64,000 nucleotides of DNA, from assembly GCF_030698125.1 (NCBI RefSeq), contig NZ_JAUYNV010000014.1, positions 3,028-67,027 of the forward strand, given 5' to 3'. Source of the stretch: Methyloversatilis sp. Lineage in GTDB: Bacteria; Pseudomonadota; Gammaproteobacteria; Burkholderiales; Rhodocyclaceae. Below, piece by piece: positions 18,733-46,818 of the stretch. Position numbers and translations under genes: made by a program. Within the stretch, counting starts at the first letter, position 1. Every line of letters begins with the position of its first letter. The notes under the pieces were generated by a model, which was not told the DNA's origin, did no database searches, and saw only the letters and a program-made list of their open reading frames with translations.

Positions 18733-18758
18733 TGACAGGCAAGACGAGGACAGAAGGC

Positions 18759-20377: not shown

Positions 20378-20406
20378 GTGACAATGCGGTGACGCAGGGA
20401 TGACAG
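20378..20406 (-). promoter_or_regulatory. tandem Pho boxes (three 7-mers in 11-bp register) upstream of the phytase-like gene
   Basis: The sense strand reads CTGTCAT-CCCT-GCGTCAC-CGCA-TTGTCAC (7/7, 5/7 and 6/7 matches to the PhoB half-site CTGTCAY), 63-91 nt upstream of the start at 20315. Confidence 0.6.
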
Positions 20407-20418
20407 CGGGGCCGGCGC

Positions 20419-21114
20419 TTGCGGCGACGGCCCCGGGACGAATCTTTCGTGCAACACTTTCTCCCTCCGCTCATCGGGTATCGGATCAGAGTGCTGCCGA
20501 TCGAACTGCTTGTCGCCGGGCTGGCATTGGCCGTCAGCCTCATGCTGCGCCCCTGGCGCATGCTGCGCGGCCCGCTTGGCGCGCCCTGGGTGGCGTCCTG
20601 GGTGCTGCTGTCGCTGCTCTGGGTATTGCCGCAGAACCTGCCGGCCGGCATTTCGATCCAGCTGTCAGGTGCCTGCCTGCTGGTGCTGATGTTCGGCTGG
20701 CCGCTGGCGGTGATCGAACTGCTGCTGATTGCGCTCGCGGTGTGGCTGTTCGGCCATCTGGGCTGGGCTACGGTGCTGTCGCAGCTGGTATGGATCGGCC
20801 TGGTGCCGGCGACGCTGGCACTGGGGCTGGGCGAGGTGTTGCGGCGCACGCTGCCGCCACATCCCTTCATCTACGTGCTGGGCCGCGCGTTCATCGGCAC
20901 CGCGCTCTGCCTGTTCCTGGCCGGGGTGGCATACGAGTTTGCGCATCACCTGATCGACGGTGTCGCGATGGAACAGGCGCTGGTCGCGCGCTGGCTGATG
21001 GCCTGGGGCGATGCCTTCATCACCGGCATGCTGGTGTCGATCTTCGTCGCCTTCATTCCCGAATGGCTGGCGACCTGGTCGGACCGGCGCTACCTCGGAC
21101 CCGGCGGTACCTGA
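20419..21114 (+). CDS. polytopic integral membrane protein, unknown function
   Basis: 231-aa ORF with about 6 hydrophobic helices (e.g. LLVAGLALAVSLML, WVASWVLLSLLWVL, LLIALAVWLFGHLGW). No motif I can name. The start is uncertain because the 5' end abuts the Pho boxes of the divergent gene. Confidence 0.5.
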   Translation: MRRRPRDESFVQHFLPPLIGYRIRVLPIELLVAGLALAVSLMLRPWRMLRGPLGAPWVASWVLLSLLWVLPQNLPAGISIQLSGACLLVLMFGWPLAVIELLLIALAVWLFGHLGWATVLSQLVWIGLVPATLALGLGEVLRRTLPPHPFIYVLGRAFIGTALCLFLAGVAYEFAHHLIDGVAMEQALVARWLMAWGDAFITGMLVSIFVAFIPEWLATWSDRRYLGPGGT

Positions 21115-21139
21115 TCGCGCGGACCACGCCGGACTGTCA

Positions 21140-22438: not shown

Positions 22439-22595
22439 GGGCAGACTCCTGTGCGGTCGGGCGATAACGGATCATCGAATCTTGATGGTAGGCAATTTTC
22501 GATGTCGGTATCGAGCCTGGTCAAGACGTCAGGCGCCGGTCATCAACGTTCGACAACACGCCGGCACGCCCTTGCACGGGAACAGCGACCCTATG

Positions 22596-22624
22596 CTCAC
22601 CGCTTGCCCGCGGGCAGCGGTGAG
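22596..22624 (-). terminator. strong hairpin 10 nt after the PhoX-like gene stop (no U-tract)
   Basis: CTCACCGCT(T)GCC-CGCG-GGCAGCGGTGAG: a 12-bp stem with one bulge. Confidence 0.4.
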
Positions 22625-22634
22625 CGGGCAGGGC

Positions 22635-24296: not shown

Positions 24297-24371
24297 CTGC
24301 GTTTCCTTGTTCCGGGGCGCGCCGCACGGACCATCCGGGCGGTCATTCATTCGGAAGCTTGTACGCAGGCT

Positions 24372-28344: not shown

Positions 28345-28426
28345 TGGCACGTGGCGGTGCCTGGCACCACACTGCGGTCATCACTCGGCGCCCGCATGCC
28401 GTGTGCCCATAACAGGAGGAGATCCC

Positions 28427-29431
28427 ATGAAACTGCATTCCATGCTGTTCGGCCTGATCGCGCTCGGCCTGACCCCGTTTGCCGCTGCGCAACAGCCCAT
28501 CGTGATCAAGTTCAGCCACGTCGTGGCCACCGAAACGCCGAAGGGCAAGGCGGCGGAGTTCTTCAAGAAGCGTGCCGAAGAATTGACCGGTGGCAAGGTG
28601 AAGGTCGAGGTGTATCCGAACAGCCAGCTGTACAAGGACAAGGAAGAGATGGAGGCGTTGCAGCTGGGCGCCGTGCAGATGCTGGCGCCGTCGCTGGCCA
28701 AGTTCGGCCCGCTGGGCGTCAAGGAATTCGAGGTGTTCGACCTGCCGTTCATCTTCGATGGCTACGCCGACCTGCACAAGGTGACCAAGGGCCCGATCGG
28801 CGCCGGCATCCTGAAGAAGCTCGATTCCAAGGGCATCATCGGTCTGGCGTTCTGGGACAACGGTTTCAAGTCCTTTTCGGCCAATACGCCGATCAGGACG
28901 CCGGCTGACCTGAAGGCGAAGAAGTTGCGCATCCAGTCGTCCAAGGTGCTCGAAGAGCAGATGCGCAGCATCGGCGCGCTGCCGCAGGTGATGGCGTTCT
29001 CCGAGGCGTATCAGGCGCTGCAGACCGGCGTGGTCGATGGCACCGAGAACCCGCACTCCAATATGTATACGCAGAAGATGCACGAAGTGCAGAAGCACAT
29101 GGCGGTGACCGATCACGGCTATCTCGGCTACGCGGTCATCGTGAACAAGAAGTTCTGGGACGGCCTGCCGGCCGATGTGCGCGGCCAGCTCGATACGGCG
29201 ATGAAGGAATCGACCGAATACGCGAACCAGATCGCCAGGGAAGAGAACGACAACTCGCTCGACGGCATCCGCAAGAGCGGCAAGACCCAGGTCTATGTGC
29301 CGACGGCCGACGAGCGCCTGGCGTTCAAGCGCGTCATGGTGCCGGTGCACAAGAAGATGGAAGGGCGCATCGGTCGGGAATTGATCGATGCCATCTACAA
29401 GGAAACGGCCTTCGATCCGTCGAAGCTGTAA
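28427..29431 (+). CDS. dctP: TRAP transporter C4-dicarboxylate-binding protein
   Basis: AGGAGGA RBS, ATG 28427. The sequence ...QPIVIKFSHVVATETPKGKAAEFFKKRAEELTGGKVKVEVYPNSQLYKDKEEMEALQLGAVQMLAPSLAKFGPLGVKEFEVFDLPFIF is very close to Rhodobacter DctP as I recall it. Confidence 0.9.
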   Translation: MKLHSMLFGLIALGLTPFAAAQQPIVIKFSHVVATETPKGKAAEFFKKRAEELTGGKVKVEVYPNSQLYKDKEEMEALQLGAVQMLAPSLAKFGPLGVKEFEVFDLPFIFDGYADLHKVTKGPIGAGILKKLDSKGIIGLAFWDNGFKSFSANTPIRTPADLKAKKLRIQSSKVLEEQMRSIGALPQVMAFSEAYQALQTGVVDGTENPHSNMYTQKMHEVQKHMAVTDHGYLGYAVIVNKKFWDGLPADVRGQLDTAMKESTEYANQIAREENDNSLDGIRKSGKTQVYVPTADERLAFKRVMVPVHKKMEGRIGRELIDAIYKETAFDPSKL

Positions 29432-32917: not shown

Positions 32918-33376
32918 TCAGCGGCTGCGTGAATCGACGTAGGTCTTGATCGCCCACACGGCCTCCTGTTTCAGGATGCCCTCCCACGCGGGCATGTGTT
33001 CCACACCCAGGATGTATTTGCCCTTGAGCACCGTAGTCACGAAGTAGTGGTCCACGTCGGCCAGACAGCGCGCTTTCAGCGCGGCGTCCTGCACCTTCTT
33101 GCAGTAGCGCTGCAGCCGGCGCAGCGGCGGGGCTGGGTGGCCCTTGGCATTCATGTCCGGGCCGTGGCATTTCGAACAGGTTTCGTTGTACAGCGTACGC
33201 CCGACGGCGGCGATCGTGTCGTCGTCGCGATAGGGATTGGCGTCGCGCCAGGCGTCGCCCAGCGCGGGCAGGGACGAGGTGTCGGTCAATGGCGCCGCGG
33301 GGCGTTCGGCCCCGACGGTGCCGGACAAGAGGATCAGCGAGGCGGTGAACAGCGCAGTCAGCAGTCGGGGTGTCAT
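32918..33376 (-). CDS. periplasmic cytochrome c, PedF/ExaB (c550)-like paralogue 1
   Basis: 152 aa with a signal peptide and a single CSKCHG haem site. Flanks are shared with the gene at 42481-42921 (NPYR.D, MP.(W/F)EG, EA.WAI..Y.D.R). It has a ~16-aa insertion containing two Cys. Confidence 0.8.
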   Translation of the reverse strand: MTPRLLTALFTASLILLSGTVGAERPAAPLTDTSSLPALGDAWRDANPYRDDDTIAAVGRTLYNETCSKCHGPDMNAKGHPAPPLRRLQRYCKKVQDAALKARCLADVDHYFVTTVLKGKYILGVEHMPAWEGILKQEAVWAIKTYVDSRSR

Positions 33377-33403: not shown

Positions 33404-34003
33404 TTACCAGTCCACCGGACAGCCGTCGCAGCCCTCGAAGCTCACGTCGAGAAATACGGCAAAGCGGGTGAAGCAGTTCTTCATGACGGCATTGCGGAAG
33501 TCGGCTTCCTGGAACTTGGTTTCCTGCATGTTCACGTCGATCAGCCGGGCGCCGTTCAGCCTCACATGGGTGGCGCGGGCGGCTTCCATGTTCGCCATCG
33601 ACAGGTCGGCATTGCTGAGGTCCGCGCGGAACAAGCGCGCGAACTCCAGATCGGTGGCAATGAGCCTGGCGCCGCGCAGCGACGCAGCAGGAATGTTCGC
33701 CTTCTGGACTTTCGCTGCGCTCAGATCGGCACCATCCAGCATGGCGCCAGCCAGATTGGCGCTGCGCAGGTCCGCGCGGACCAGTTTTGCACCGGTCAGG
33801 TCGGCACCCGCAAGATCGCGCAGCGACAGGTCGGCGTGACTGAGATCGACGCCGGGACAGCGGGTGTAGGGCCAGATGGGGCAGCCATTGATGACCAGCA
33901 CTTCTTCATGCGCGTCCTCGGCGGATGACGCGTCCACGGCATGGACCGGGGCAGTCAGGCTGGCAAGCAGCACACAGAAGGCGACGATGCGCGAAAGCTT
34001 CAT
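33404..34003 (-). CDS. secreted pentapeptide-repeat protein
   Basis: Trimmed to ATG 34003 (MKLSRIVAFCVLLASLTAPVHA). The body consists of A(D/N)LSx pentapeptide repeats (ADLSLRDLAGADLTGAKLVRADLRSANLAGAMLDGADLS...). Confidence 0.85.
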   Translation of the reverse strand: MKLSRIVAFCVLLASLTAPVHAVDASSAEDAHEEVLVINGCPIWPYTRCPGVDLSHADLSLRDLAGADLTGAKLVRADLRSANLAGAMLDGADLSAAKVQKANIPAASLRGARLIATDLEFARLFRADLSNADLSMANMEAARATHVRLNGARLIDVNMQETKFQEADFRNAVMKNCFTRFAVFLDVSFEGCDGCPVDW

Positions 34004-34200: not shown

Positions 34201-36063
34201 TCAGCGCTTCGGCAACTTGAAGGCCCAGAACGAGCCGCCCTGATTCACCTGCTTGGTCAGCTCGGCCATGTCGCCGCCCCACAGCGGCACGGCACCACCG
34301 TAGCCTGACGCGATGCCGACGTACTGCTCACCGTCCTGTTCCCACGTGATGGGCACCGAAACCACACCGGAGCCGGTCTGGAATTTCCACATCTCCTTGC
34401 CGGTCCTGGCGTCGAAGGCCTTCACGTAGCCGTCCGACGTACCCGTGAACAACAGGCCACCCGCGGTGGTCAGCGTGCCTGCCCACAGCGGGAACTGCTC
34501 CTTGTGTTCCCAGGCGATCTTGCCGGTCTTCGGGTCGATCGCCCGAAGCGTGCCGACGTGGTCATCAAACAGTTTCTTGATGCGGAAGCCCTGGCCGAGG
34601 TAGGCGGCACCCGCCTTGTAGGTGACGTTTTCCGCCCAGTAGTCCATCGCCCAGTGGTTGCCCGGAATGTAGAAAAGCTCGGTAACCGGGCTATAGGACA
34701 TCGGCATCCAGTTCGTTCCGCCGAGGAAGGGCGGCGACACGAAAATGCTTTCGCCCTTCTCTTCACCCGCCTTCGGCTTCGGCGGGTACTGGCTTTCGAC
34801 CACGTTCGGCATGCCGGTCTTGAGGTCGAAACCCTTGGTCCAGGTGATGCCATCGACAAACGGCCAGGCGCCGATCAGCGCAGTCTGCTTCCACGGGTAG
34901 CCGGCACCAGTGGCCAGCTTCTCGCGATCGGTCACGAAGAAGTAGCCGTTGCGGTCGGCGTGCGCCGAAGCCTTCACCAGCTTGCCGGTCTTCGGATCCT
35001 TGTACTCGAACAGCAGCACCGAATTGTTGCCCGAGAAGTCCCAGGCGTCGTTCGGCGTGTGCGAGAAGAAGCCCTTCAGTTCGCCGGTCGATGCATCGAC
35101 ATAGGCCTGGCCGGACGTGAACAGGCTGGGCCACTTGGACGGGCTGTCGCCTTCCTTGGTGCGCTTCCAGGTGTTCCACGGCGCCGGGTTGCCGGTGCCG
35201 ATCACGACCATGTTCTGTTCGACGTCGAACGAGGCGGTCTGCCAGGGGGCACCACCGCCGTGACTCCAGGCTTCGACCTTGCCGGTCGGCGAGCTGGGGT
35301 CATCCGGCCAGCTGGGAGCCTTGGCGTCGCCGGTCGGCGTGCTGTCCTTGCCGTTCAGCCGACCCATGTGGCCTTCGACCATCGGGCGCGCCCAGATTTC
35401 TTCGCCGGTGTCGACATCGCGTGCAAACAGATAGCCGATCACGCCGAATTCGTCACCCGACGAGCCGTGCACCAGCATGACGCGACCGCTCTTCTGGTCC
35501 TTCACGACAAACGGTGCGCCGGTCATCGTGTAGCCGATCTTGTGATCACCCCACTTCTTCGACCAGACGACCTTGCCGGTGTCCTTGTTCAGGGCGACCA
35601 TGCCGGCGTCCAGCGTGCCGAAGTACACCTTGTCGCCATAGATGGCAGCGCCGCGGTTCACCACGTCGCAGCACGGGCGGATGTCGTCGGGCAGGCGGTG
35701 CTCGTAGGTCCACAGCCGCTTGCCGGTCTTCGCTTCGATGGCATACATGCGCGAGTACGAACCGGTGATGTAGATGACGCCGTCGTGCACCAGCGCCTGC
35801 CCCTGCTGGCCGCGCTGCTTTTCGCCACCGAAGGAATAGGACCAGGCGGGGGAGAGCGCCGACACGGTCTGGGTGTTGATCTGTTTCAGCGGGCTGTGAC
35901 GCTGGGCCTTCATGCCCAGGCCGTAGGTCAGCACGTCGCCGGTCGTCTTGTCGTCGTTGACGATGTCTTCCCAGCTCACCGTCTTTGCGGCGTGGGCCGG
36001 GCTGGCGAGCAGCGCGCCGAGCGCGATGCAAAGTGCCGGGTTCTTCAGTGAAAACGTTTTCAT
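34201..36063 (-). CDS. PQQ-dependent methanol/ethanol-family dehydrogenase, Ca-type signature (D-F-S)
   Basis: Trimmed to ATG 36063 (AGGAG RBS; MKTFSLKNPALCIALGALLASPAHA). It has the vicinal-Cys ring [10 protein letters not shown] and W-propeller repeats. The active site is NDAWDFSGNN, with Ser344 (codon 35032-35034) at the position that is Asp in lanthanide enzymes. Confidence 0.85.
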   Translation of the reverse strand: MKTFSLKNPALCIALGALLASPAHAAKTVSWEDIVNDDKTTGDVLTYGLGMKAQRHSPLKQINTQTVSALSPAWSYSFGGEKQRGQQGQALVHDGVIYITGSYSRMYAIEAKTGKRLWTYEHRLPDDIRPCCDVVNRGAAIYGDKVYFGTLDAGMVALNKDTGKVVWSKKWGDHKIGYTMTGAPFVVKDQKSGRVMLVHGSSGDEFGVIGYLFARDVDTGEEIWARPMVEGHMGRLNGKDSTPTGDAKAPSWPDDPSSPTGKVEAWSHGGGAPWQTASFDVEQNMVVIGTGNPAPWNTWKRTKEGDSPSKWPSLFTSGQAYVDASTGELKGFFSHTPNDAWDFSGNNSVLLFEYKDPKTGKLVKASAHADRNGYFFVTDREKLATGAGYPWKQTALIGAWPFVDGITWTKGFDLKTGMPNVVESQYPPKPKAGEEKGESIFVSPPFLGGTNWMPMSYSPVTELFYIPGNHWAMDYWAENVTYKAGAAYLGQGFRIKKLFDDHVGTLRAIDPKTGKIAWEHKEQFPLWAGTLTTAGGLLFTGTSDGYVKAFDARTGKEMWKFQTGSGVVSVPITWEQDGEQYVGIASGYGGAVPLWGGDMAELTKQVNQGGSFWAFKLPKR

Positions 36064-36211: not shown

Positions 36212-36232
36212 GGTCTTTGCGGGTGTTCCACT
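36212..36232. promoter_or_regulatory. inverted repeat GGTGTTC-N7-GAACACC; candidate enhancer (UAS) for the sigma-54 activator
   Basis: Perfect 7-bp arms, about 100-120 bp upstream of the -24/-12 element at 36331. TGAACAC(C) recurs at 38082-38088 and 38117-38124, upstream of the second -24/-12 element. Confidence 0.35.
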
Positions 36233-36330
36233 GTTGAACACCTTGATGTCGCGACCTGAGACAGCCGCATGGCGTTAAGCTCGCGCTTTGGGGTACCGGT
36301 GGCTGTTGTGCCGGAGGCCGATGCAGTCGA

Positions 36331-36346
36331 TGGCCCTCGACTTGCT
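36331..36346 (+). promoter_or_regulatory. sigma-54 (-24/-12) promoter of the SoxYZ-like/MBL operon
   Basis: TGGCCC-TCGAC-TTGCT: GG and GC at the canonical 10-nt spacing, 56 nt before the start at 36402. Confidence 0.6.
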
Positions 36347-36401: not shown

Positions 36402-37151
36402 ATGAAGCAGTTACTGGTGGCGCTCTGGTTGGCGCTGGGGCTTGGTGCAGCGGCCGGCGCGGCCGACCCGCTCGGTTCGTCGCGCTGGCCCGACCTGCAG
36501 CGCGAATATGCCGGCAACGCGCCGGTCACCTTCGATTCTCGTGTCGAGGTGCTGGCGCCCAAGGTGGCCGAAGATTCGATGAACGTGCCGGTCACGATCA
36601 AGTTCCGGAACCTGCCCGACGTGAAGCGCGTGCTGGTGGTTGCCGACTTCAATCCCATCGTCAAGGTGCTCGACTACCAGCCGCTACTGGCGCAACCCGG
36701 CCTGTCCTTCCGCATCAAGCTGCAGCAGGCCAGCCCCATCCGCGCGCTGGTGCAGACCGGCGACGGCAAATGGTATGCGGGCGGCGTGTGGGTCGACGCG
36801 GCGGGCGGCGGCTGCACGGCGCCCAGCACCGGGCGCAGTGCACCGGACTGGGCCAGCACGCTGAACCAGGTGCAGGCGCGCGTATTCCACGACGGGCAGA
36901 ACCAGCGCGTGCGGCTGCGCATCATGCATCCGATGGATACCGGCCTCGCGCCAGGCATTCCCGCCTTCTACATCGAGCAGCTGGCGGTCGAGGACGCCAG
37001 CGGCGAGGCGATGCTGCGTATGGAAACCTTCGAGCCGCTGAGCGAAAACCCGGTGTTTTCGTTCGACCTGCCGGATACCGGCAAGGCGGCACTGCGCGTG
37101 GTCGGTCGCGACAACAACGGCAACCGCATCGACGCGATGGTGCAGCCATGA
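36402..37151 (+). CDS. periplasmic fused SoxY/SoxZ-like carrier protein with a single Cys in a GGGC arm (quinoprotein-dehydrogenase-associated type)
   Basis: 249 aa with signal peptide MKQLLVALWLALGLGAAAGA. The only cysteine of the protein is in VDAAGGGCTAP (codon 36813-36815), at the junction of two beta-rich halves. Context sits between two PQQ dehydrogenases. Confidence 0.65.
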   Translation: MKQLLVALWLALGLGAAAGAADPLGSSRWPDLQREYAGNAPVTFDSRVEVLAPKVAEDSMNVPVTIKFRNLPDVKRVLVVADFNPIVKVLDYQPLLAQPGLSFRIKLQQASPIRALVQTGDGKWYAGGVWVDAAGGGCTAPSTGRSAPDWASTLNQVQARVFHDGQNQRVRLRIMHPMDTGLAPGIPAFYIEQLAVEDASGEAMLRMETFEPLSENPVFSFDLPDTGKAALRVVGRDNNGNRIDAMVQP

Positions 37152-38119
37152 TCGGGCGGTTCCTGCTCGCCCTCGCGCTGGCCGGTGGCACGCTGCTGGC
37201 GCAGGCGGCCGATCCGGCTGCCACGGACCGTTTCGACTACGGCCTCGTACCGCAGAAGATCGCCGACAACAGCTGGGCTTTCGTCGGCCGGACCGAGGAC
37301 ATCACCCGGGACAACGGCGGCAATATAGTCAATACCGCCTTTGTGGTGACGGCCGAGGGCGTTGTGGTGATTGACACCGGACCGTCACGTCGCTACGGCG
37401 AACAGATGCGGGCGGCCATCGCCCGCGTGACCGACCGTCCGGTCATCCGGGTGTTCAACACCCACCAGCACCCCGACCACTTCCTCGGCAATCAGTCATT
37501 CTCCGGCGTGCCGATGGCGGCGCTGCCGGCTGCGCAGGCCGGCATGCGGGAGCAGGGCGGAGCCTTCGCCGACAACATGTACCGCATGGCCGGTGACTGG
37601 CTGGCCGGCACCGAAGTCACCGTGGCGGATCAGGCGGCACAGGCGGGACGGCTGACGATAGGCGGTCACGAGTTCGAGCTGATCGCGCTGGAAGGGCACA
37701 CTGGCGGCGATCTGGCGATTTTCGACCGCACCACCGGCGTGCTGTACGCCGGTGACCTGATTTTCCTCGACCGGGCACCGACCACGCCGCACGCTTCGAT
37801 CACCCATTGGCGCGCCGCGCTCGACACGCTGGCCGCACTCCCGGTGAAGCGCACACTGCCCGGCCATGGTCCGGTGCACGACGACCGGCGCGGCATCGGT
37901 CAGACGCGCGACTGGCTCGACTGGCTCGACGACACGCTGAGTCGTGCTGCGACGAGCGGCATGGACATGGCCGAAGTGATGGTGCTGCCGATCCCCGAAC
38001 GCTTCGTGCAGATGCCGCTTGCGCGCAGCGAATTCGAACGTTCGGTGACACACCTGTATGGCCGCTACGAACAGCAGACGCTGAACACTGCTGCGCCTTC
38101 CCGATTGAAACAAAAATGA
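37148..38119 (+). CDS. periplasmic metallo-beta-lactamase-fold zinc hydrolase (quinoprotein relay-system type)
   Basis: ATG 37148 overlaps the upstream stop (ATGA). Signal peptide MIGRFLLALALAGGTLLAQA. Motifs: THQHPDH (HxHxDH), a later EGHTGGD, and LPGHGP. Confidence 0.7.
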   Translation: MIGRFLLALALAGGTLLAQAADPAATDRFDYGLVPQKIADNSWAFVGRTEDITRDNGGNIVNTAFVVTAEGVVVIDTGPSRRYGEQMRAAIARVTDRPVIRVFNTHQHPDHFLGNQSFSGVPMAALPAAQAGMREQGGAFADNMYRMAGDWLAGTEVTVADQAAQAGRLTIGGHEFELIALEGHTGGDLAIFDRTTGVLYAGDLIFLDRAPTTPHASITHWRAALDTLAALPVKRTLPGHGPVHDDRRGIGQTRDWLDWLDDTLSRAATSGMDMAEVMVLPIPERFVQMPLARSEFERSVTHLYGRYEQQTLNTAAPSRLKQK

Positions 38120-38182: not shown

Positions 38183-38198
38183 TGGCCCGCTTCTTGCG
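38183..38198 (+). promoter_or_regulatory. sigma-54 (-24/-12) promoter of the lanthanide-type PQQ dehydrogenase gene
   Basis: TGGCCC-GCTTC-TTGCG, 70 nt before the start at 38268. It has the same TGGCCC variant as the promoter at 36331. Confidence 0.6.
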
Positions 38199-38267: not shown

Positions 38268-40022
38268 ATGAAAGGTTTGCGTACCACGACGCTGTCCGGC
38301 GTCCTGCTGTCTGCATTCGCCGCGCTGGCTGCGCCGCAAGTCATGGCCGGCGTCACCGACAAGGACATCGAAGCCGACGCCAAGACCACGACCAGCATCC
38401 TGTCGTGGGGCATGGGCACCGAAGGTCAGCGCTACAGCCCGCTCGACAAGATCAATGTGAAGAACGTCAAGAACCTGGTTCCGGCCTGGTCCTTCTCCTT
38501 CGGTGGTGAAAAGCAGCGCGGCCAGGAATCGCAGCCGCTGATCATCAACGGCAAGATGTACGTGACCGGCTCCTACTCGCGCCTGTACGCGCTGGACGCC
38601 AAGACCGGCACCAAGCTGTGGCAGTACGAACACCGCCTGCCGGACGGCATCATGCCGTGTTGCGACGTGGTGAATCGTGGCGCCGCCGCCTACGGCGACC
38701 TGGTCATCTTCAGCACGCTGGACGCACAACTCGTTGCGCTCGACCAGAACACCGGCAAGGTCGTGTGGAAGGAAAAGATCGACGACTATCAGGCCGGCTA
38801 CTCGAATACCGCCGCCCCGATCATCGCCAAGGGCCTGCTGCTGACTGGCGTGTCCGGTGGTGAATTCGGCGTCATCGGCCGCGTTGAGGCACGCGATCCG
38901 AAGACCGGCAAGCTGGTGTGGGTCCGCCCGACGGTCGAAGGCCACATGGGCTACAAGTACGACGCCGCAGGCAACAAGACGGAAAACGGCATCAGTGGCA
39001 CGCTGAACGCCACCTGGACCGGTGACCTGTGGAAGACCGGCGGCGCAGCCACCTGGCTGGGCGGCAGCTATGACGCGAAGACCGGCCTGGCTTACTTCGG
39101 GACCGGCAACCCTGCACCGTGGAACAGCCACCTGCGCCCCGGCGACAACCTGTTCTCGTGCTCGACCGTCGCCATCGATGTGACCACCGGTCAGATCAAG
39201 TGGCACTTCCAGGGCACGCCGAATGACGGCTGGGATTACGACGGTGTGAATGAATTCGTCACCTTCGACATGAACGGCAAGCGCATGGGTGGCAAGGCCG
39301 ACCGCAACGGCTTCTTCTACGTGCTGGATGCCAATACCGGCAAGTTCGAACGCGGCTTCCCGTTCGTGAACAAGATCACCTGGGCCAAGGGCCTGGACGC
39401 CGAAGGCAGGCCGATTTTCGACCCGGCCAACCGCCCCGGCGACCCGGCCAAGAGCGCTGACGGCAAGAAGGGCGAATCCGTGTTCGCGACACCGTCCTTC
39501 CTGGGCGGCAAGAACCAGATGCCGATGGCCTACAGCCCGGACACCGGCCTGTTCTACGTGCCGGCCAACGAGTGGGGCATGGAAATCTGGAACGAACCGA
39601 TCACCTACAAGAAGGGTGCGGCCTATCTGGGCGCCGGCTTCACGATCAAAACCATCGAGGACAAGTACATCGGCGCCCTGCGCGCGGTGGATCCGAAGAC
39701 CGGCAAGATCGTGTGGGAAGTCACCAACAACGCTCCGCTGTGGGGTGGTGTGATGACAACCAAGGGCGGGCTGGTGTTCTGGGGTACCCCGGAAGGCTTC
39801 CTGAAGGCAGCTGACGCGAAGACGGGCAAGGAAGTGTGGTCCTTCCAGACCGGCACCGGCGTCGTGGCCCCCCCGATCACGTGGGAGCAGGACGGCGAGC
39901 AGTACATCGGTGTTGCAACCGGCTGGGGTGGCGCAGTGCCGCTGTGGGGTGGCGACGTCGCCAAGAAGGTGAACTACCTGAATCAGGGTGGTTCGATGTG
40001 GGTGTTCAAGCTGCACAAGTAA
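38268..40022 (+). CDS. PQQ-dependent alcohol dehydrogenase, lanthanide-type signature (D-Y-D), PedH/ExaF-like
   Basis: 584 aa; GAGGAGG RBS; signal peptide. It has the Cys-Cys ring [10 protein letters not shown]. The active site is [12 protein letters not shown], with Asp323 and the extra Asp325 (codon 39240-39242) that coordinates Ln3+ in XoxF/PedH-type enzymes. Confidence 0.85.
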
Positions 40023-40127
40023 TTTGCAGAAAGGACCGATGCAGGCACGACGCTTGCATTGGTTCCTGTGCCGTGTCTGTTTCAGTGTTTTCAGGCACGG
40101 TATCTCTTCAGCAGGACATGGCTCTTG

Positions 40128-40155
40128 AGCCGGCTCACAAGGCCGGCTTTTTTTT
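40128..40155 (+). terminator. rho-independent terminator after the PQQ dehydrogenase gene
   Basis: AGCCGGC-N7-GCCGGCT followed by a run of T (8 T in total, counting the last stem base). Confidence 0.8.
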
Positions 40156-40183: not shown

Positions 40184-42154
40184 TCAGCCTTCCTTGAGCT
40201 TGCGGTAGAGCGTGGTGCGGCTGATGCCGAGTTCGCGTGCCGTCGCCGCGACGTTGCCATCATTGCGCGACAGCGACTCACGGATTGCGCGCAGTGTCAG
40301 GCTGTCGAGATCGCAGGGTGCCCCACCACCGCCCGCCGCGCCTTCTGCTGCCAGCCCATTGCCGGCAGGCTGATGATCCAGTTCGTCGATGAAGTCATCC
40401 GGAAGGTGCGGCCGGCCGATCACGCCATCGTCCGCCGCCATGACGCCTGCGGTGCGCAGCAGGTTGGCCAGCTGGCGCATGTTGCCCGGCCAGGGATGGC
40501 GTTCGAACAGCGCGAGCACCTCGTCGTCGATGCTCAGGCCGCGCGGAATCGACGATTCACTGTCGAGTATGCGCTGCACCAGCGCGCGCAGGTCACTGCG
40601 TTCGCGCAGCGGCGGCAGCATGACGGTCAGCCCGTTGAGCCGGTAGTAAAGGTCGGCGCGGAACATGCCCTGGGCGACCAGATCACGCAGCTTGCGGTGG
40701 GTGGCGCAGATGATCGACAGGTCGACCGGTGAGGCGCGGCCGCTGCCCAGCGGTACCACGTTGCGTTCCTGCAGCACGCGTAGCAGGCGCGCCTGCAGCG
40801 CCAGCGGCATGTCGCCGATTTCATCAAGAAACAGTGTGCCGCCATCGGCCTGCATGATGCGGCCGGCGTAGCCCTTGCGCCGGGCGCCCGTGAAGGCGCC
40901 ATCTTCGTAGCCGAACAGTTCCGATTCGATCAGACCATCCGGAATCGCCGCACAGTTGACCGCCACAAAGTTGTGGTCGCGACGCGGGCCTTCGTCGTGG
41001 ATGGCGCGCGCCAGCAGCTCCTTGCCGGTACCGGTCTCGCCCTGGATGAGCACCGGAATGTCGCGGCCGAGCACGCGCTTCACCTTTTCCACAACGGCAT
41101 TCATCTGCGCGTCACCGGTGCTCAGGCGCTCCAGGCCGCAATCCGGGTCGGCCGGCGGCCGCAGCGAAGTCCCTGTCGATGCGTCATGGCGAGAAACATC
41201 CATGCTGAAAACACGGGCTGGCGGGCGTGCTAGCACGCCCGGCCGCGGCCGGCCGAACAGTGTTCGGCCGCCGAACAGGCGCAATTCAATGATGTCCGTG
41301 CCGCGCATCAGCGGGTCGTACAGCGCGCTCAGCGACTTGTCGAACATCGACGAAAAGCTGTGGTTCATCAGTTCGGCATGGCTGCGGCCGATCAGCCGGC
41401 AGGCGCTGCGGTTGGCAGACAGCACGCGGCCCTCCTGGTCGAACGCAAGCAGCGCCTCGAATACCGTGCCGATCAGTTCGTGCTGGACGTGGCAGTGCAG
41501 CAGGAAGCCTTCCGGAAAGGCATGCGCAAACAACTGGTTCTCGATCGTCTGAACAGCCAGATTGATCAGCGCCAGACTGTGGTGCGACGGCGTGCGCGAA
41601 TCGCCGGTCACGTCGAGCACGCCCAGCATGCGGCTGCACGGATCGAAGATCGGAGATGCCGAACAGCTCAGGAAGTGGTTGGCGGAAAAGAAATGCTGCG
41701 AGCCATGCACCGATACCGGCGCCTGTTCGACCAGCGCAGTGCCGATGGCATTGGTGCCCTTGCTTTCTTCCGACCACTCGACGCCCGGCGACAGCGCGAC
41801 TTTCGACGCGCGGTCCAGAAAGCTCTGGTCGCCGACCGAATGAATGATGAAGCCGGAGGCGTTGGTCAGCACGATCATGCTGCCGGAGCGGGCGATCTGC
41901 GCATACAGGCCGTTCATCACGGGGGCCGCGTGCTTGAGCAGACATTCGTTGCGCTCACGCTCGGTCAGCAGGACGTCGCGTCGTGCACGCTCCACTTCCT
42001 TGCTGCAACTGTCGGCGTCGAGGCCGCGACTGATGCAGCGGCTCCACGACGTTTCGATCAGTGTCGGTAGCACGCCAGCGGGCACTTCGCCTTCGCTGCG
42101 CATGATTTCGTGGGCCTGCGCACTGCGCACGCCGTCAGGCGTTGTCAAATCCAT
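40184..42154 (-). CDS. sigma-54-dependent transcriptional activator, AcoR-like (N-terminal sensory/GAF-like domain, AAA+, Fis HTH)
   Basis: ATG 42154 has a GGAGGA RBS (the track starts at GTG 42178). It has Walker A GETGTGKE, the sigma-54 contact loop GAFTGA (YEDGAFTGARRKG), and the C-terminal HTH GNVAATARELGISRTTLYRKLKE. Confidence 0.85.
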   Translation of the reverse strand: MDLTTPDGVRSAQAHEIMRSEGEVPAGVLPTLIETSWSRCISRGLDADSCSKEVERARRDVLLTERERNECLLKHAAPVMNGLYAQIARSGSMIVLTNASGFIIHSVGDQSFLDRASKVALSPGVEWSEESKGTNAIGTALVEQAPVSVHGSQHFFSANHFLSCSASPIFDPCSRMLGVLDVTGDSRTPSHHSLALINLAVQTIENQLFAHAFPEGFLLHCHVQHELIGTVFEALLAFDQEGRVLSANRSACRLIGRSHAELMNHSFSSMFDKSLSALYDPLMRGTDIIELRLFGGRTLFGRPRPGVLARPPARVFSMDVSRHDASTGTSLRPPADPDCGLERLSTGDAQMNAVVEKVKRVLGRDIPVLIQGETGTGKELLARAIHDEGPRRDHNFVAVNCAAIPDGLIESELFGYEDGAFTGARRKGYAGRIMQADGGTLFLDEIGDMPLALQARLLRVLQERNVVPLGSGRASPVDLSIICATHRKLRDLVAQGMFRADLYYRLNGLTVMLPPLRERSDLRALVQRILDSESSIPRGLSIDDEVLALFERHPWPGNMRQLANLLRTAGVMAADDGVIGRPHLPDDFIDELDHQPAGNGLAAEGAAGGGGAPCDLDSLTLRAIRESLSRNDGNVAATARELGISRTTLYRKLKEG

Positions 42155-42411: not shown

Positions 42412-42427
42412 TGGCACGCATCCTGCT
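42412..42427 (+). promoter_or_regulatory. sigma-54 (-24/-12) promoter of the cytochrome c550 gene
   Basis: TGGCACG-CATC-CTGCT, a close match to TGGCACG-N4-TTGCW, 54 nt before ATG 42481. Confidence 0.65.
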
Positions 42428-42480
42428 AACGGGCTGGGGCCGCATATTGTGTTGCAGTAACGGATATTTACGGAGGAGTG

Positions 42481-42921
42481 ATGAAAGCAGGTAACCGGAT
42501 TTTGAAGGCAACGCTGGTCTGTACCGCGTTGATTACGTTGGGCGCGGCGACCACGTTGCGCGTCGAGGCACACGGCGACGTCGTGCCCCAGGCAGTCGAC
42601 GTCAGCGGGCTCAAGCCGCTCGGCGCGGAATGGATGAAGGAAAACCCTTATCGTGGCGACAAGGAAGCCATCCGCATCGGCACCTCGGCCTACAACCAGA
42701 ATTGTGCGCGCTGCCACGGGCTGGAAGCCATCAGCGGCGGTATCGCGCCGGATCTCCGGATGCTGCCGCTCGACGCCGAAAGCGACGACTACTTCATCAA
42801 CACGGTCCGCCGCGGACGCGTGCGCAACGGTGCGGTTTACATGCCGCCGTTCGAAGGCACGATGGCGCAGGAAGCCATGTGGGCCATCCGCAGCTATCTC
42901 GATACGCGCTACGAACCGTGA
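42481..42921 (+). CDS. pedF: cytochrome c550 of quinoprotein alcohol dehydrogenases (PedF/ExaB-like), paralogue 2
   Basis: 146 aa from ATG 42481 (GGAGG RBS), or GTG 42478. Signal peptide, a single CARCHG haem site, and the C-terminus MPPFEGTMAQEAMWAIRSYLDTR. Confidence 0.8.
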   Translation: MKAGNRILKATLVCTALITLGAATTLRVEAHGDVVPQAVDVSGLKPLGAEWMKENPYRGDKEAIRIGTSAYNQNCARCHGLEAISGGIAPDLRMLPLDAESDDYFINTVRRGRVRNGAVYMPPFEGTMAQEAMWAIRSYLDTRYEP

Positions 42922-42983: not shown

Positions 42984-43144
42984 GCATTGAACACACTCGC
43001 CGCACTCAAACCCCCGTGCTGACCCGCCGAAAGGCCTCCCGCGGGGAAAATCCGGGCGCTAAAATATGAAGCGGTTTTCATAGCCGGCGCACCGTGCGTC
43101 GAACCACACAGTGATACGCCCAGAATGTGGAGGAGCGACTGAAC

Positions 43145-43615
43145 ATGCAGAAATCACTACATATTGACCCCTCGAAATGCACGAGCTGCCTGCAGTGCGA
43201 AATGGCCTGCTCGTTCGAGAACTACGGGGTCTTCAATAATTCGCTGTCGCGCATCAAGGTGTTCGAGTTTCACCACACCGGCGCCAAGGTGCCGTACACC
43301 TGTACTCAGTGCGACGAAGCCTGGTGCATGCATGCCTGTCCGGTCGAGGCGATCAAGCTCGACAAGACCAATGGCGCCAAGGTGGTGCTCGAAGATGTCT
43401 GCGTTGGCTGCAAGGTTTGCACGATTGCCTGTCCGTTCGGCACGGTGAATTACGTCGCCGAAACCGGCAAGGTCCAGAAGTGCGACCTGTGCGGTGGCGA
43501 CCCGGCCTGTGCCGAAGCTTGTCCGACGGGTGCCATCACGTATGTCGATGCCAACTGGACCGGGCTGGAGCGCATGCGCCAGTGGGCCGACAAGCTCGGC
43601 AACCCGTCTGCCTGA
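43145..43615 (+). CDS. aorA: 4x[4Fe-4S] ferredoxin-like electron-transfer subunit of aldehyde oxidoreductase
   Basis: ATG 43145 with a GGAGGA RBS. Four Cys clusters: CTSCLQCEMAC, CTQCDEAWCMHAC, CVGCKVCTIAC and CDLCGGDPACAEAC. Confidence 0.8.
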   Translation: MQKSLHIDPSKCTSCLQCEMACSFENYGVFNNSLSRIKVFEFHHTGAKVPYTCTQCDEAWCMHACPVEAIKLDKTNGAKVVLEDVCVGCKVCTIACPFGTVNYVAETGKVQKCDLCGGDPACAEACPTGAITYVDANWTGLERMRQWADKLGNPSA

Positions 43616-43635
43616 CCACCGAAAGGGATACCGAC

Positions 43636-45483
43636 ATGGCATGGACACGTAAAATTCTCCGCGTAAATCTGACCGACCGCACCTGTACGAGCGAGCCGCT
43701 CAACATGGAGTGGGCGCACGACTATCTGGGTCAGCGCGGTCTGGCGACGAAGTACCTGGCGTCGGAAATCGATCCGAAGGTCGATCCGCTGTCGCCGGAC
43801 AACAAGATCATCTGGGCGACCGGCCCGCTGACCGGCACGATGGCCTCCACAGGCGGCCGCTATTCGGTCGTCACCAAGGGCCCGCTGACCGGCGCCATCG
43901 CCTGTTCGAACTCCGGCGGCTACTTCGGCGCCGAATTGAAGTTCGCCGGCTGGGACATGGTGATCATCGAAGGCCGTGCGTCGAGCCCGGTCTATCTGTC
44001 GATCGAGAACGACAAGGTCGAACTGCGCGATGCCTCCCATCTGTGGGGCAAGACCGTGTGGGAAACCGAAGGTCAGATCAAGTCGGAACATCAGGATCCG
44101 CAGGTCCGTGTGTCCTGTATCGGCCGCACCGGCGAAAACGGCGTGCTGTACGCCGCCATCGTCAATGACCTGCACCGCGCAGCCGGCCGTTCCGGCGTCG
44201 GTGCCGTCGCCGGCTCGAAGAACCTGAAAGCGATTGCGGTACGCGGCACGCTGGGTGTTGGCAACATCGCCAATCCGAAGGAGTTCATGAAGGTTACCTT
44301 CGAGAAGAAGAAGATCCTCAAGGAGAACGCGGTTACCGGTCAGGGCCTGCCGACCTACGGCACGCAGGTGCTGATGAACGTGATCAACGAAATCGGTGCC
44401 ATGCCGACGCGCAACCACAAGGATGTGCAGTTCGAAGGCGCGCGCAAGATTTCGGCCGAGGCGATGCACGAGCCGCGCGAAAGCGATGGCAAGGCGCAAC
44501 TGATCAACAACCAGGCCTGCTTTGGCTGCACCATCGCCTGTGGTCGCATCTCCAAGATCGACGCCACGCACTACACCGTGGTCAACAGCCCGAAGTACTG
44601 GGGTGCATCGGGCGGTCTGGAATACGAAGCGGCCTGGGCGCTTGGCTGTGCCAATGGCGTCGATGACCTGGATGCGCTTCAGTACGCGACCATGCTCTGC
44701 AACGAAGACGGCTTCGACCCGATTTCCTTCGGCGCCACCATCGGTGCGGTGATGGAACTGTATGAAATGGGCGTGCTGACGAAGGAAGAAGTCGGCATCG
44801 AAGCGCCTTTCGGTTCTGCCAGGGCGCTGACCTATCTGACCGAAATCACTGCCCGCGGCGAAGGCTTCGGCAAGATCATCGGCCTCGGTTCGAAGCGTTT
44901 GTGCGAGAAGTACGGTCATCCCGAACTGTCGATGTCGGTCAAGGGCCAAGAATTCCCGGCCTACGATGCGCGCGCCGTGCAGGGCATGGGCCTGACCTAT
45001 GCGACGTCGAACCGCGGCGCCTGTCACCTGCGTTCTTATACGATTTCGTCCGAAGTGCTGGGCATTCCGGTCAAGACCGATCCGCTGACGACCGAAGGCA
45101 AGCCGGCGTTGGTCAAGGCCTTCCAGGACGCGACAGCGGTGGTCGATTCGACTGGCCTGTGCGTGTTCACGACCTTTGCCTGGGCGCTGTCCGACATCCA
45201 GCCGCAACTGCAGGCGGCGTGCGAAGGCGATTGGTCGATGGAAAAGCTGGACCTGATGGGCGAACGCATCTGGAACATGGAGCGACAGTTCAACAACGCG
45301 GCCGGTTTCACGCGCAAGGACGACGATCTGCCGGCCCGCCTGAAGACGGAAGCGGCCAAGGTCGGTCCGGCCAAAGGTCTGGTTTCAGGTATCGACAAGA
45401 TGATTCCCGAGTACTACGACCTGCGCGGCTGGGACCCGGAAGGTCGCCCGACCGCCGAAACCGTCGCCCGCCTGGGCCTCTGA
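43636..45483 (+). CDS. aorB: aldehyde:ferredoxin oxidoreductase family (tungsten-pterin) catalytic subunit
   Basis: ATG 43636 (MAWTRKILRVNLTDRTCTSEPL...). There is strong collinear similarity to archaeal AOR as I recall it (LGQRGLATKYL, DPLSPDNKIIWATGPLTG, GGRYSVVTKGPLTG, NSGGYFGAELKFAGWD, GRSGVGAVAGSKNLKAIAV). It also has the 4Fe-4S motif CFGCTIAC and YATSNRGACHLRSY. Confidence 0.9.
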   Translation: MAWTRKILRVNLTDRTCTSEPLNMEWAHDYLGQRGLATKYLASEIDPKVDPLSPDNKIIWATGPLTGTMASTGGRYSVVTKGPLTGAIACSNSGGYFGAELKFAGWDMVIIEGRASSPVYLSIENDKVELRDASHLWGKTVWETEGQIKSEHQDPQVRVSCIGRTGENGVLYAAIVNDLHRAAGRSGVGAVAGSKNLKAIAVRGTLGVGNIANPKEFMKVTFEKKKILKENAVTGQGLPTYGTQVLMNVINEIGAMPTRNHKDVQFEGARKISAEAMHEPRESDGKAQLINNQACFGCTIACGRISKIDATHYTVVNSPKYWGASGGLEYEAAWALGCANGVDDLDALQYATMLCNEDGFDPISFGATIGAVMELYEMGVLTKEEVGIEAPFGSARALTYLTEITARGEGFGKIIGLGSKRLCEKYGHPELSMSVKGQEFPAYDARAVQGMGLTYATSNRGACHLRSYTISSEVLGIPVKTDPLTTEGKPALVKAFQDATAVVDSTGLCVFTTFAWALSDIQPQLQAACEGDWSMEKLDLMGERIWNMERQFNNAAGFTRKDDDLPARLKTEAAKVGPAKGLVSGIDKMIPEYYDLRGWDPEGRPTAETVARLGL

Positions 45484-45546
45484 TCGGGTTTTACCCCTGA
45501 CCTCGCCGCGCCCTTCGGGGCGCGGCGCATTTCGACAGGAACAAAC

Positions 45547-46818
45547 ATGAAACACGTCATCATCGGCAACGGTCCGGCCGGAGTGGTCGCCGCCGAGGCG
45601 CTGCGCCGCGCGGACGCATCGGCCGACATCGTCATGATCGGCGATGAGCCGGAGCGGCCGTATTCGCGCATGGCCATTCCCTATCTGCTGGTCGGTAATA
45701 TCGAAGAGAAGGGCACTTGGCTGCGCAAGACGGACCGCCACTTCGAGTCGCTGCGCATTCGCGAAGTGCTCGGACGCGCGAAATCGGTCGACACCACCGG
45801 CCGCACGGTCCATCTCGAAGACGGCACCGCACTGCAGTACGACAGGCTGCTGATCTGCACCGGGTCACACCCGCTGCGCCTGCCGGTACCTGGCATCGAT
45901 TCGCCGAATGTTCACAGCTGCTGGACGCTTGAAGATGCGCGCCACATCGCCGCCAAGGCAAAGAAGGGCGCCCGGGTGCTGCAGATCGGCGCCGGCTTCA
46001 TCGGCTGCATCATCATGGAAGCGCTTGCCTCGCGTGGCGTCAAGCTCGACATCGTCGAAATGGGCGACCGCATGGTGCCGCGCATGATGACGTCCAAGGC
46101 CGGCAGCATGATCGCGCGCTGGGTCGAACAGAAGGGTGTGACCGTCCATACGAATGCGCGTGTCACGGCGATCCGTCAGGACGGCGATGCCCTGGTCGCT
46201 ACGCTGGGTGACGGCAAGGAAGTGGTGGCCGACCTGATCATCGCGGCCGCCGGCGTCAAGCCCAATACCGCCTTCCTCGAAGGCAGCGGCGTCGCCTGCG
46301 CGACCGGCATCCTGATCGACGAACGCTGCGAAACCAATGTGCCGGGTGTGTTCGCGGCGGGGGACGTGGCCGAAGCGATCGATTTTTCGACCGGCGAACG
46401 CCTGGTCAACGCCATCCAGCCGAACGCGGTCGATCAGGGCCGTGTCGCCGCCATGAACATGGCCGGCCGCAGCTCGCGCTCGCAGGGCACCATGGCGATC
46501 AACGTGCTCGACACGCTGGGCCTGATTTCAGCGTCCTTCGGTCAGTGGTGGGGCGCCGACGGTGGGGATGCGGTCGAAATGATCGACGACAAGCGCTTCC
46601 GTTACATCAGCCTGCAGTTCAAGGAAGACGTGCTGGTCGGCGCGACCTCGATCGGCCTGACCGACCACGTCGGTGTGCTGCGCGGCCTGATCCAGACGCG
46701 TACGCCGCTCGGTACCTGGAAGGAACGCCTGATGCAGGACCCGCTGCGCGTCATGGAAGCCTATCTGTCGAGCGCCCAGGCGCAGAGCGCTGCGCCGATC
46801 GCCGGGGTTGCGCACTGA
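45547..46818 (+). CDS. aorC: FAD-dependent pyridine-nucleotide-disulfide-type oxidoreductase subunit
   Basis: 423 aa with two Rossmann motifs (VIIGNGPAGVVAAEAL; VLQIGAGFIGCIIMEAL). Its position is immediately after aorB, as in the described AorABC enzyme of Aromatoleum aromaticum. Confidence 0.75.
   Translation: MKHVIIGNGPAGVVAAEALRRADASADIVMIGDEPERPYSRMAIPYLLVGNIEEKGTWLRKTDRHFESLRIREVLGRAKSVDTTGRTVHLEDGTALQYDRLLICTGSHPLRLPVPGIDSPNVHSCWTLEDARHIAAKAKKGARVLQIGAGFIGCIIMEALASRGVKLDIVEMGDRMVPRMMTSKAGSMIARWVEQKGVTVHTNARVTAIRQDGDALVATLGDGKEVVADLIIAAAGVKPNTAFLEGSGVACATGILIDERCETNVPGVFAAGDVAEAIDFSTGERLVNAIQPNAVDQGRVAAMNMAGRSSRSQGTMAINVLDTLGLISASFGQWWGADGGDAVEMIDDKRFRYISLQFKEDVLVGATSIGLTDHVGVLRGLIQTRTPLGTWKERLMQDPLRVMEAYLSSAQAQSAAPIAGVAH

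Follow-up and report, generated by a model that had tools for sequence, protein, structure and literature searches.

A fused SoxYZ-like carrier and a SoxH-type metallo-β-lactamase-fold protein encoded beside a lanthanide-type alcohol dehydrogenase in Methyloversatilis sp.

The DNA analysed here (the window) is a stretch of 64,000 nucleotides of Methyloversatilis sp., taken from a metagenome-assembled genome (MAG; assembly GCF_030698125.1, contig NZ_JAUYNV010000014.1, positions 3,028 to 67,027). It contains two overlapping genes (36402-38119) for a carrier protein related to SoxY and SoxZ and for a hydrolase of the metallo-β-lactamase (MBL) fold. The pair is located between two genes encoding pyrroloquinoline quinone (PQQ)-dependent alcohol dehydrogenases (ADHs), one divergent (34201-36063, minus strand) and one downstream (38268-40022, plus strand), both of whose products pass the TIGR03075 model. 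This carrier-MBL pair is the conserved core of a ‘quinoprotein relay’ accessory module, which would be expressed from its own sigma-54 promoter together with the downstream, lanthanide (Ln)-type ADH. An earlier note on this DNA had described the 249-aa carrier reading frame with its single cysteine, the ATGA overlap, the THQHPDH motif of the hydrolase, signal peptides on both proteins and the position between two PQQ-ADHs, and all of these were confirmed, the signal peptides by inspection only.

The carrier gene (36402..37151, plus strand) is preceded by a GAGGAG ribosome-binding site 8 nt upstream of its start, and the GC content at its third codon positions (GC3) is 0.86. The N-terminus of its product resembles a Sec signal peptide, with an apparent cleavage point between AGA and AD. 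Hidden Markov model searches, proposed in the earlier note, placed the protein in the NCBIfam family TIGR04557 (231.7 bits, cut-off 140; E = 6e-69), the match spanning positions 1-225 of the 226 in the profile, and Pfam recognised two domains within the single chain, SoxY at residues 36-138 and then SoxZ at residues 164-244. The models of the canonical Sox proteins were missed (SoxY TIGR04488: 55.7 bits, cut-off 125; SoxZ TIGR04490: 34.5 bits, cut-off 76). The SoxY profiles terminate exactly at residue 138, i.e. at the sole cysteine of the carrier (codon TGC, 36813..36815, plus strand; within VDAAGGGCTAP), and therefore Cys138 is homologous to the sulfur-binding cysteine of the SoxY GGCGG arm. 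Here, the arm is an internal loop (GGGCTAPS) continuing into the SoxZ domain, not a free C-terminal GGCGG.

The AlphaFold2 model of the carrier, with a predicted local distance difference test (pLDDT) score of 86.9, shows two beta-rich (beta-sandwich) halves. Residues 138-141 are the sole very-low-confidence stretch (pLDDT below 50), which suggests that the Cys138 loop is flexible. When the model was compared with the Protein Data Bank (PDB) using Foldseek, the first matches were the SoxY chains of 2ox5, 2oxg and 4uwq, with a target-normalised template modelling score of about 0.84.

The earlier note had proposed aligning orthologues to see whether the cysteine is invariant, and it is strongly conserved. 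The GGGCT-P motif including Cys138 is found in all 25 carrier homologues sharing 55-87% identity, and among 69 full-length sequences, each standing for a 50%-identity cluster and the most distant sharing 26% identity, (G)GGC[TS] is kept bar a few exceptions. The few representatives devoid of it contain Arg/Ala-rich strings typical of wrong-frame translation, and so appear to be frame-shifted. Eight of ten distant representatives scanned with TIGR04557 pass the model, and the other two are slightly under it (128-132 bits). As judged from these comparisons, the carrier is probably a periplasmic SoxY-type protein presenting one invariant thiol, and we propose that Cys138 carries a covalent cargo.

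The MBL gene (37148..38119, plus strand, 323 aa) overlaps the carrier gene, whose stop is shared with its start (ATGA, 37148-37151). Its product contains the Pfam domain Lactamase_B and belongs to TIGR04558, ‘quinoprotein relay system zinc metallohydrolase 1’ (435.8 bits, cut-off 300), and it remains under the cut-off of the paralogous TIGR04559 (174.2 bits, cut-off 280). For both proteins, the families named in the earlier note are thereby upheld. An apparent Sec signal peptide (AQA followed by AD at the cleavage point) is present. The THQHPDH motif (H106-H111, 37463-37480) contributes to a set of seven residues, H106, H108, D110, H111, H184, D203 and H240, which are invariant in 24 MBL sequences and together provide every ligand of the binuclear site of hydrolytic MBLs. 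The protein would thus be a SoxH-type di-metal hydrolase, zinc and activity being taken from a family name that rests on homology only.

All the top structural neighbours of the MBL protein (AlphaFold2 model, pLDDT 90.6) are MBL-fold proteins. The closest is 8d2z, an uncharacterised Burkholderia MBL, followed by chlorothalonil dehalogenase, B1/B2 beta-lactamases and the alkylsulfatase SdsA1. By sequence, 8d2z is also the best match among solved structures (E = 4e-13; none is close), and as it is uncharacterised, no function can be transferred from it.

A scan of 185,579 species genomes confirmed at least 563 matching stretches, and 2891 protein clusters exist at 90% identity. For the study of genomic context we used the best 80 of these at least 563 loci (L003-L082, mostly Rhodocyclales) with two further ones (L001-L002), as well as 3 alphaproteobacterial and 10 low-GC loci. 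Neighbourhood counts were derived from tblastn; the GC3-based gene caller missed genes in some high-GC loci. The MBL gene is situated directly downstream of the carrier gene in all 77 Rhodocyclales-type loci (of L001-L082) with enough sequence, and it also adjoins the carrier gene in the 3 alphaproteobacterial and in 9 low-GC marine loci. Natural carrier-MBL fusions (P0151, P0163) were considered as evidence of interaction and rejected, because a frame-shifted linker and an MBL signal peptide within the chain mark them as artefacts of read-through rather than Rosetta-stone fusions.

The dehydrogenase gene downstream of the pair (38268..40022, plus strand), which starts 148 bp after the MBL gene, encodes a PedH/ExaF-like protein (TIGR03075, 756.5 bits) with vicinal Cys-Cys residues. 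An extra Asp two residues past the catalytic Asp has been proposed as diagnostic of Ln-ADHs (bioRxiv 10.1101/2020.02.25.964783). The protein reads W-D-Y-D-G at residues 322-326 and, by this extra Asp, is predicted to be of the lanthanide type.

At least one PQQ-ADH is present in 71 of the 82 loci (L001-L082), and in 69 of these 71 the pair has an orthologue of the Ln-type ADH as its neighbour, located downstream of it or upstream in divergent orientation; every such orthologue reads W-D-[YF]-D. The calcium (Ca)-type ADH of the 34201-36063 kind, together with pentapeptide-repeat and cytochrome genes, occurs in 21 related loci only. It follows that the conserved partner of the pair is the lanthanide-type ADH. 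The linkage to quinoprotein dehydrogenases claimed in the earlier note is therefore real, but it concerns this type specifically and not ‘two quinoproteins’.

More distant lineages show other layouts. Bradyrhizobium has an operon in the order MBL-rhodanese-carrier, and an alphaproteobacterial-type metagenome contig of the European Nucleotide Archive (ENA) bears a frame-shifted MBL gene, then the carrier gene and a rhodanese-like gene. In Azospirillum sp. Sh1 (L085:5224-10825) the order MBL-carrier directly follows, on the same strand, genes of tetrahydromethanopterin (H4MPT)-dependent formaldehyde oxidation (Mpt_N, MCH, CitG-like; FTR upstream). In a low-GC marine clade (L086-L095, metagenome contigs, about 27% GC) the order is PedF, MoxJ-like substrate-binding protein (SBP), carrier and MBL, with a YVTN propeller and an ATP-binding cassette transporter upstream. 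These layouts indicate that carrier and MBL form the invariant core, while the rhodanese-like, SBP, propeller and second-MBL genes are optional.

The window represents a minimal version of the module, as the earlier note had supposed. Queries from related loci for rhodanese-like, YVTN-propeller, MoxJ-like SBP and second-MBL genes (tblastn) revealed nothing else in it, and a six-frame search of the window for CXXCW gave matches in non-coding frames only. Because the rhodanese-like partners of related loci read C-x3-C-W, the window was re-tested for them by tblastn, and none was found. The statement that no SBP occurs in the window was, however, wrong: there is one, a DctP of the tripartite ATP-independent periplasmic (TRAP) type (28403-29431), which falls outside the quinoprotein-associated family. 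No Sox genes are found among the annotated genes within about 10 kb of the pair.

The pair is its own sigma-54 unit. Its -24/-12 promoter, TGGCCCTCGACTTGCT (36331..36346, plus strand), already pointed out in the earlier note, is the sole exact match to TGGC-N7-TTGCW in the 64 kb. Of 82 related loci, 49 have an equivalent element, in many cases the canonical TGGCAC-N5-TTGC, in the 260 bp before the carrier gene. A second sigma-54-type promoter, TGGCCCGCTTCTTGCG (38183..38198, plus strand), assigned to the Ln-type ADH, is a one-mismatch match, and a sigma-54 element in the MBL-ADH spacer was detected in 30 of the 34 related loci with this gene order. Sites with one mismatch to the -24/-12 consensus occur at the level of chance (38 found, 36.5 expected), so that it is not enrichment that speaks for the promoters but their position and their conservation across species. 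A third sigma-54-like site is located upstream of pedF (42412-42427).

The minus-strand gene at 40184..42154 encodes a sigma-54 enhancer-binding activator (MimR_N/GAF/AAA+/HTH_8), which stands beside the cluster in many related loci. It probably regulates the cluster, and would do so by acting at these promoters. The pair is probably co-regulated with the Ln-ADH gene. No terminator-like site was found in the MBL-ADH spacer; one is located inside the MBL coding sequence (37732-37754). Transcription of the pair may run on into the Ln-ADH gene, which is followed by the sole convincing terminator, a hairpin with a T-run (40127..40149, plus strand).

A palindrome, GGTGTTCCAC-T-GTTGAACACC (36222..36242), about 90 bp upstream of the -24 element and the sole exact copy in the window, was considered as a candidate activator-binding site. 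As a site shared between promoters it was rejected, since none of the window's other sigma-54 promoters has a copy of it and it is exact only in the closest relatives; it is kept as a lead. A further near-consensus sigma-54 element, AGGCACGACGCTTGCA (40043-40058, plus strand), lies just past the Ln-ADH stop and before the terminator, and the next 2.4 kb contain no plus-strand gene.

The pair is another copy of a named, widespread and functionally uncharacterised module, and not a fresh discovery. It has already been discussed as a module of unknown function in PMC11237559 (mSystems 2024) and PMC12997753 (AEM 2026). The statement that the module lacks biochemical characterisation stands, since no such study of the carrier or the MBL family was found in the searchable literature. 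PMC12997753 lists PP_2677 (SoxYZ-like), PP_2678 (SoxH-like) and PP_2666 (rhodanese) of Pseudomonas putida as uncharacterised, notes that Pseudomonas aeruginosa does without the pair, and puts forward two ideas, maintenance of the Ln-ADH disulfide or cofactor, and shielding of PQQ from sulfur nucleophiles. PMC11237559 describes clades of fused SoxYZ beside PQQ-ADH and soxH, and beside xoxF, for which a role in carbon metabolism or in protection from thiosulfate was suggested. Clusters in the order adhI-soxH-xoxF5-xoxG-xoxJ have also been reported; in Rhodobacter and Roseobacter, soxH is flanked by adhI and xoxF5 (PMC5934484).

One of the closest known counterparts is the P. putida KT2440 ped cluster, in which PP_2677 and PP_2678 represent the same two families, carrier then MBL, directly upstream of the Ln-ADH gene pedH, with a Ca-type ADH, a pentapeptide-repeat protein and cytochrome c-550 encoded nearby. 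However, neither the PedG-type SBP nor the PP_2666-type rhodanese-like protein is encoded in the window, which has a sigma-54 activator in place of the PedS2/PedR2 two-component system, and a tungsten-type aldehyde:ferredoxin oxidoreductase (AOR) where P. putida has the NAD-dependent aldehyde dehydrogenase PedI. The fused SoxYZ clades S2 and S4 of the lucinid symbionts Ca. Thiodiazotropha (PMC11237559) likewise have a fused SoxY-SoxZ beside PQQ-ADH and soxH, and one of our loci (L081) is a Ca. Thiodiazotropha MAG with this same arrangement. The difference lies in the hosts, which are sulfur-oxidising symbionts and possess canonical Sox genes as well; the authors propose that methanol dehydrogenase is protected from thiosulfate.

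Based on these observations, we suggest that the two proteins work as a cycle serving the Ln-ADH. The exported carrier would present the Cys138 thiol on its flexible Gly-rich loop, as SoxY presents its swinging arm; in the periplasm a small group would become attached to this thiol by a covalent bond, and the exported SoxH-type MBL would hydrolyse the adduct and regenerate the free carrier, by analogy with SoxYZ and SoxB or with the role proposed for SoxH. In this general form we regard the cycle as probable on balance, if by no wide measure. We infer the formation of an adduct and its identity, the action of the MBL on the carrier and the part of the ADH as oxidant.

The likeness to the canonical SoxYZ and SoxB proteins (Paracoccus, Thermus; PDB 2ox5, 4uwq) extends from the SoxY and SoxZ folds and the position of the cysteine on a Gly-rich flexible segment to the principle of a carrier with a hydrolase that frees it. 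On the other hand, the carrier of the window is one fused chain with an internal arm and scores far under the SoxY and SoxZ cut-offs, and its hydrolase is an MBL, unlike SoxB, which is a dimanganese 5'-nucleotidase-type enzyme.

As for the cargo, we narrowly favour an acyl group derived from an aldehyde, although this version, taken by itself, is doubtful. By spontaneous addition, the carrier thiol would capture the aldehyde that the Ln-ADH produces, yielding a hemithioacetal, the Ln-ADH would oxidise this to a thioester, with the electrons passing to cytochrome c-550, and the MBL would release the acid from the carrier thioester. Acyl cargo alone makes the minimal set (carrier, MBL, Ln-ADH and c-550) chemically complete, because the addition of a thiol to an aldehyde is spontaneous. 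The same succession of thiol plus aldehyde, hemithioacetal, its oxidation or isomerisation to a thioester, and hydrolysis is known from glutathione (GSH)-formaldehyde dehydrogenase with S-formylglutathione hydrolase and from glyoxalase I/II, and glyoxalase II is, like the hydrolase of the window, an MBL-fold enzyme. Unlike those routes, which use a diffusible cytoplasmic thiol, the one proposed here would employ a periplasmic protein thiol. Moreover, the MBL fails the glyoxalase II (GloB) model and is structurally nearer to lactamases, the dehalogenase and the alkylsulfatase. Acyl cargo fits the H4MPT context of the pair in Azospirillum and the adhI context (PMC5934484), and the induction of the PP_2678 protein along with PedE and PedH on octane (PMC9795978) also speaks for it.

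Several observations weigh against this explanation. Cys138 is held in the chain from either side, whereas the SoxY arm ends in a free C-terminus, and the active site of the ADH is buried. The MBL reaches 31.5 bits with the glyoxalase II model TIGR03413, whose cut-off is 200.8, and its top 50 structural neighbours include neither GloB nor any MBL of the thioesterase type; this makes it less probable that the protein is a glyoxalase II but would leave thioester hydrolysis possible. PQQ-ADHs can themselves oxidise free aldehyde hydrates, and with a cytoplasmic AOR in the cluster a tethered route is not obviously needed. No PQQ-ADH gene occurs within 10 kb of the pair in Azospirillum sp. Sh1 or within 8 kb in the low-GC marine clade, and no ADH gene within 10 kb in Bradyrhizobium. 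Many systems include a rhodanese-like two-Cys protein in addition, an indication of sulfur or thiol chemistry. Mutants of the P. putida homologues, analysed by RB-TnSeq (randomly barcoded transposon sequencing), had minimal phenotypes on alcohols in medium without rare earths (PMC12997753), and we found no published experiment demonstrating an adduct on the carrier or an activity of the MBL. Nothing on lanthanide-responsive expression of PP_2677 and PP_2678 was found in the supplements of PMC11520305.

The hemithioacetal-thioester relay is chemically coherent, the circumstantial evidence for it is mixed, and it should be viewed as one possibility. The explanation as a whole, with the favoured cargo included, is the best we can offer and is put forward tentatively. 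The most far-reaching claim, that the pair, the Ln-type ADH and cytochrome c-550 make up a glutathione-independent periplasmic oxidation of aldehyde on a protein thiol, with a Cys138 hemithioacetal, its conversion to a thioester by the Ln-ADH and release of the acid by the SoxH-type MBL, seems to us unlikely.

Both proteins descend from Sox proteins acting on S-linked adducts, and the cargo might accordingly be sulfur. Cys138 would then take an S-sulfonate or thiosulfonate derived from sulfite or thiosulfate, and the MBL would hydrolyse it to sulfate, a scavenging that would keep sulfur nucleophiles away from the electrophilic Ln-PQQ cofactor or from the ADH's strained Cys-Cys ring. The occurrence of the alkylsulfatase SdsA1 among the structural neighbours of the MBL and of a rhodanese-like partner in the same operon in alphaproteobacterial loci agrees with this, as does the finding, cited in PMC11237559 and PMC12997753, that thiosulfate inhibits methanol- but not formate-dependent growth of Hyphomicrobium denitrificans. 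It has also been proposed that SoxH, encoded beside soxCDYZ in Campylobacterota, frees sulfate from SoxY (PMC10045233), but that role is itself just a proposal, based on synteny and transcripts only. The minimal set, however, comes without an enzyme for oxidative loading of sulfur (no SoxXA, and no rhodanese in the window), its regulation appears tied to alcohol-oxidation genes (sigma-54 activator, co-located ADH and AOR) and not to sulfur genes, and many hosts are not sulfur oxidisers (PMC11237559). We judge sulfur-oxyanion handling rather unlikely. A function in the maturation or redox maintenance of the Ln-ADH, in which the carrier thiol, with rhodanese- or thioredoxin-like partners, would form or repair the vicinal Cys-Cys disulfide or aid assembly while the MBL is auxiliary, is favoured by PMC12997753, where a thioredoxin-like gene in the operon of M. 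extorquens is noted. The linkage is indeed specific to the Ln-type ADH, which has the Cys-Cys pair, the orders SBP-carrier-MBL-pedH (Pseudomonas, PMC12875217) and PedF-SBP-carrier-MBL (low-GC clade) resemble a set of accessory genes, and minimal mutant phenotypes without lanthanides would fit an Ln-specific role (PMC12997753). Yet the same Cys-Cys ring is present in Ca-type ADHs, which do without the pair, as in P. aeruginosa, and there are carrier-MBL units far from any ADH gene. Nor does maturation account for the hydrolase, which has its full set of ligands and is encoded next to the carrier wherever a locus offers enough sequence; in our opinion this explanation is distinctly unlikely.

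Two further explanations carry far less weight. The combination of MBL, rhodanese and thiol carrier is the parts list of known sulfide-detoxification units, and the Bradyrhizobium operon MBL-rhodanese-carrier brings to mind a periplasmic, glutathione-free detoxification of persulfide, in which a carrier persulfide would be the substrate of an MBL acting as persulfide dioxygenase (PDO), comparable to ETHE1 and PDO-rhodanese proteins. PDOs, however, use a mononuclear 2-His-1-Asp iron site, whereas all seven ligands of the binuclear site are invariant here, and although PDO/ETHE1 structures exist in the PDB, none is present among the top 50 structural neighbours of the MBL. The invariant ligands and the missing PDO neighbour make this reading very improbable. 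Finally, the linkage might be merely historical, the pair being a leftover or an independent sulfur module that travels with ped-like islands by horizontal gene transfer. Such transfer has been argued for the fused soxYZ clades (PMC11237559), and some carrier-MBL units stand alone. Against this, 69 of 71 loci have the same ADH orthologue next to the pair, with two different arrangements of the genes. Conservation of the sigma-54 promoters runs in parallel for the pair and for the ADH gene, and strong purifying conservation is seen for the cysteine, its loop and the metal ligands. A purely historical association is hardly to be expected.

In periplasmic alcohol oxidation, the SoxYZ-like/SoxH-like pair ranks as a widespread ‘known unknown’. 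Knowledge of its function would clarify how lanthanide-dependent dehydrogenases are kept up or how their products are handled, and whether processes other than sulfur metabolism have adopted the Sox carrier principle; it also bears on the design of Ped-type systems in biocatalysis. If the thiol-tethered aldehyde route were true, it would mean that the Sox carrier principle has been turned from sulfur to carbon and that Ln-ADHs have a second, protein-bound substrate. What the window adds is a clean minimal example, together with three correlations, i.e. the specificity for the Ln-type ADH, the separate conserved sigma-54 promoters and the adjacency of the MBL in all loci with enough sequence. 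Its recommendation as a ‘clean genetic target’ is weak, since the window comes from a MAG and the tractable Methyloversatilis universalis FAM5 (L016) and P. putida KT2440 already carry the pair. The question it raises can already be addressed in these two strains and will not surprise specialists.

The remaining genes of the cluster lie on both sides of the pair. The divergent Ca-type ADH gene (34201..36063, minus strand), ExaA/PedE-like and with the motif W-D-F-S-G in its product, is followed downstream by a gene for an exported, PedD-like pentapeptide-repeat protein (33404..34003, minus strand), which accompanies the Ca-type ADH in the related loci holding one. The last gene of this unit (32918..33376, minus strand) encodes a c-type cytochrome (Pfam Cytochrome_CBB3) that is weakly PedF-like (TIGR04494, 96.7 bits, under the cut-off of 122). 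On the other side, cytochrome c-550 PedF (42478..42921, plus strand; TIGR04494, 206 bits, cut-off 122) is the presumed electron acceptor of the ADH. Directly after pedF there is an operon for the AOR-type aldehyde:ferredoxin oxidoreductase (Fe-S, AFOR and FAD subunits; 43127..46818, plus strand), the cytoplasmic aldehyde-oxidising partner of the cluster. Periplasmic PQQ-dependent alcohol oxidation is here paired with a cytoplasmic AOR, which replaces an NAD-dependent aldehyde dehydrogenase. The operon stretch, through 47075, adds a ThiS-like protein and is syntenic in 19 related loci.

Other Methyloversatilis genomes (L010-L017) have an extra gene between pedF and aorA, encoding a weakly MoxJ-like SBP of about 280 aa, which is missing from the window and its closest relatives (L001-L007). 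In 36 related loci (L018, L020, L026, L073 and others) a TonB-dependent receptor related to PqqU (554 bits, under the cut-off of 1200) is encoded a few kb from the carrier, MBL and Ln-ADH genes; no such receptor is present in the window. It could be an importer of a lanthanide-chelate or of PQQ. In two loci of uncultured betaproteobacterial MAGs (L021, about 8140-9860, and L026, about 8180-9850; others in the group are labelled Sulfuritalea) a divergent PQQ-ADH-like propeller of about 30% identity is encoded immediately upstream of the carrier. It reads W-G-Y-D-V in place of the W-D-[YF]-D-G of the ADHs, and so is without the catalytic Asp.

A further region of the window (16490-24350) resembles a phosphate-scavenging island and is unrelated to the carrier-MBL pair. 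In it, a phytase-like protein (18759-20870) is encoded between two alkaline phosphatases of the PhoX type (16490-18484 and 22635-24350), both exported, and near this island a PEP-CTERM protein is encoded at 15760-16404, and probably also one at 2504-3106.

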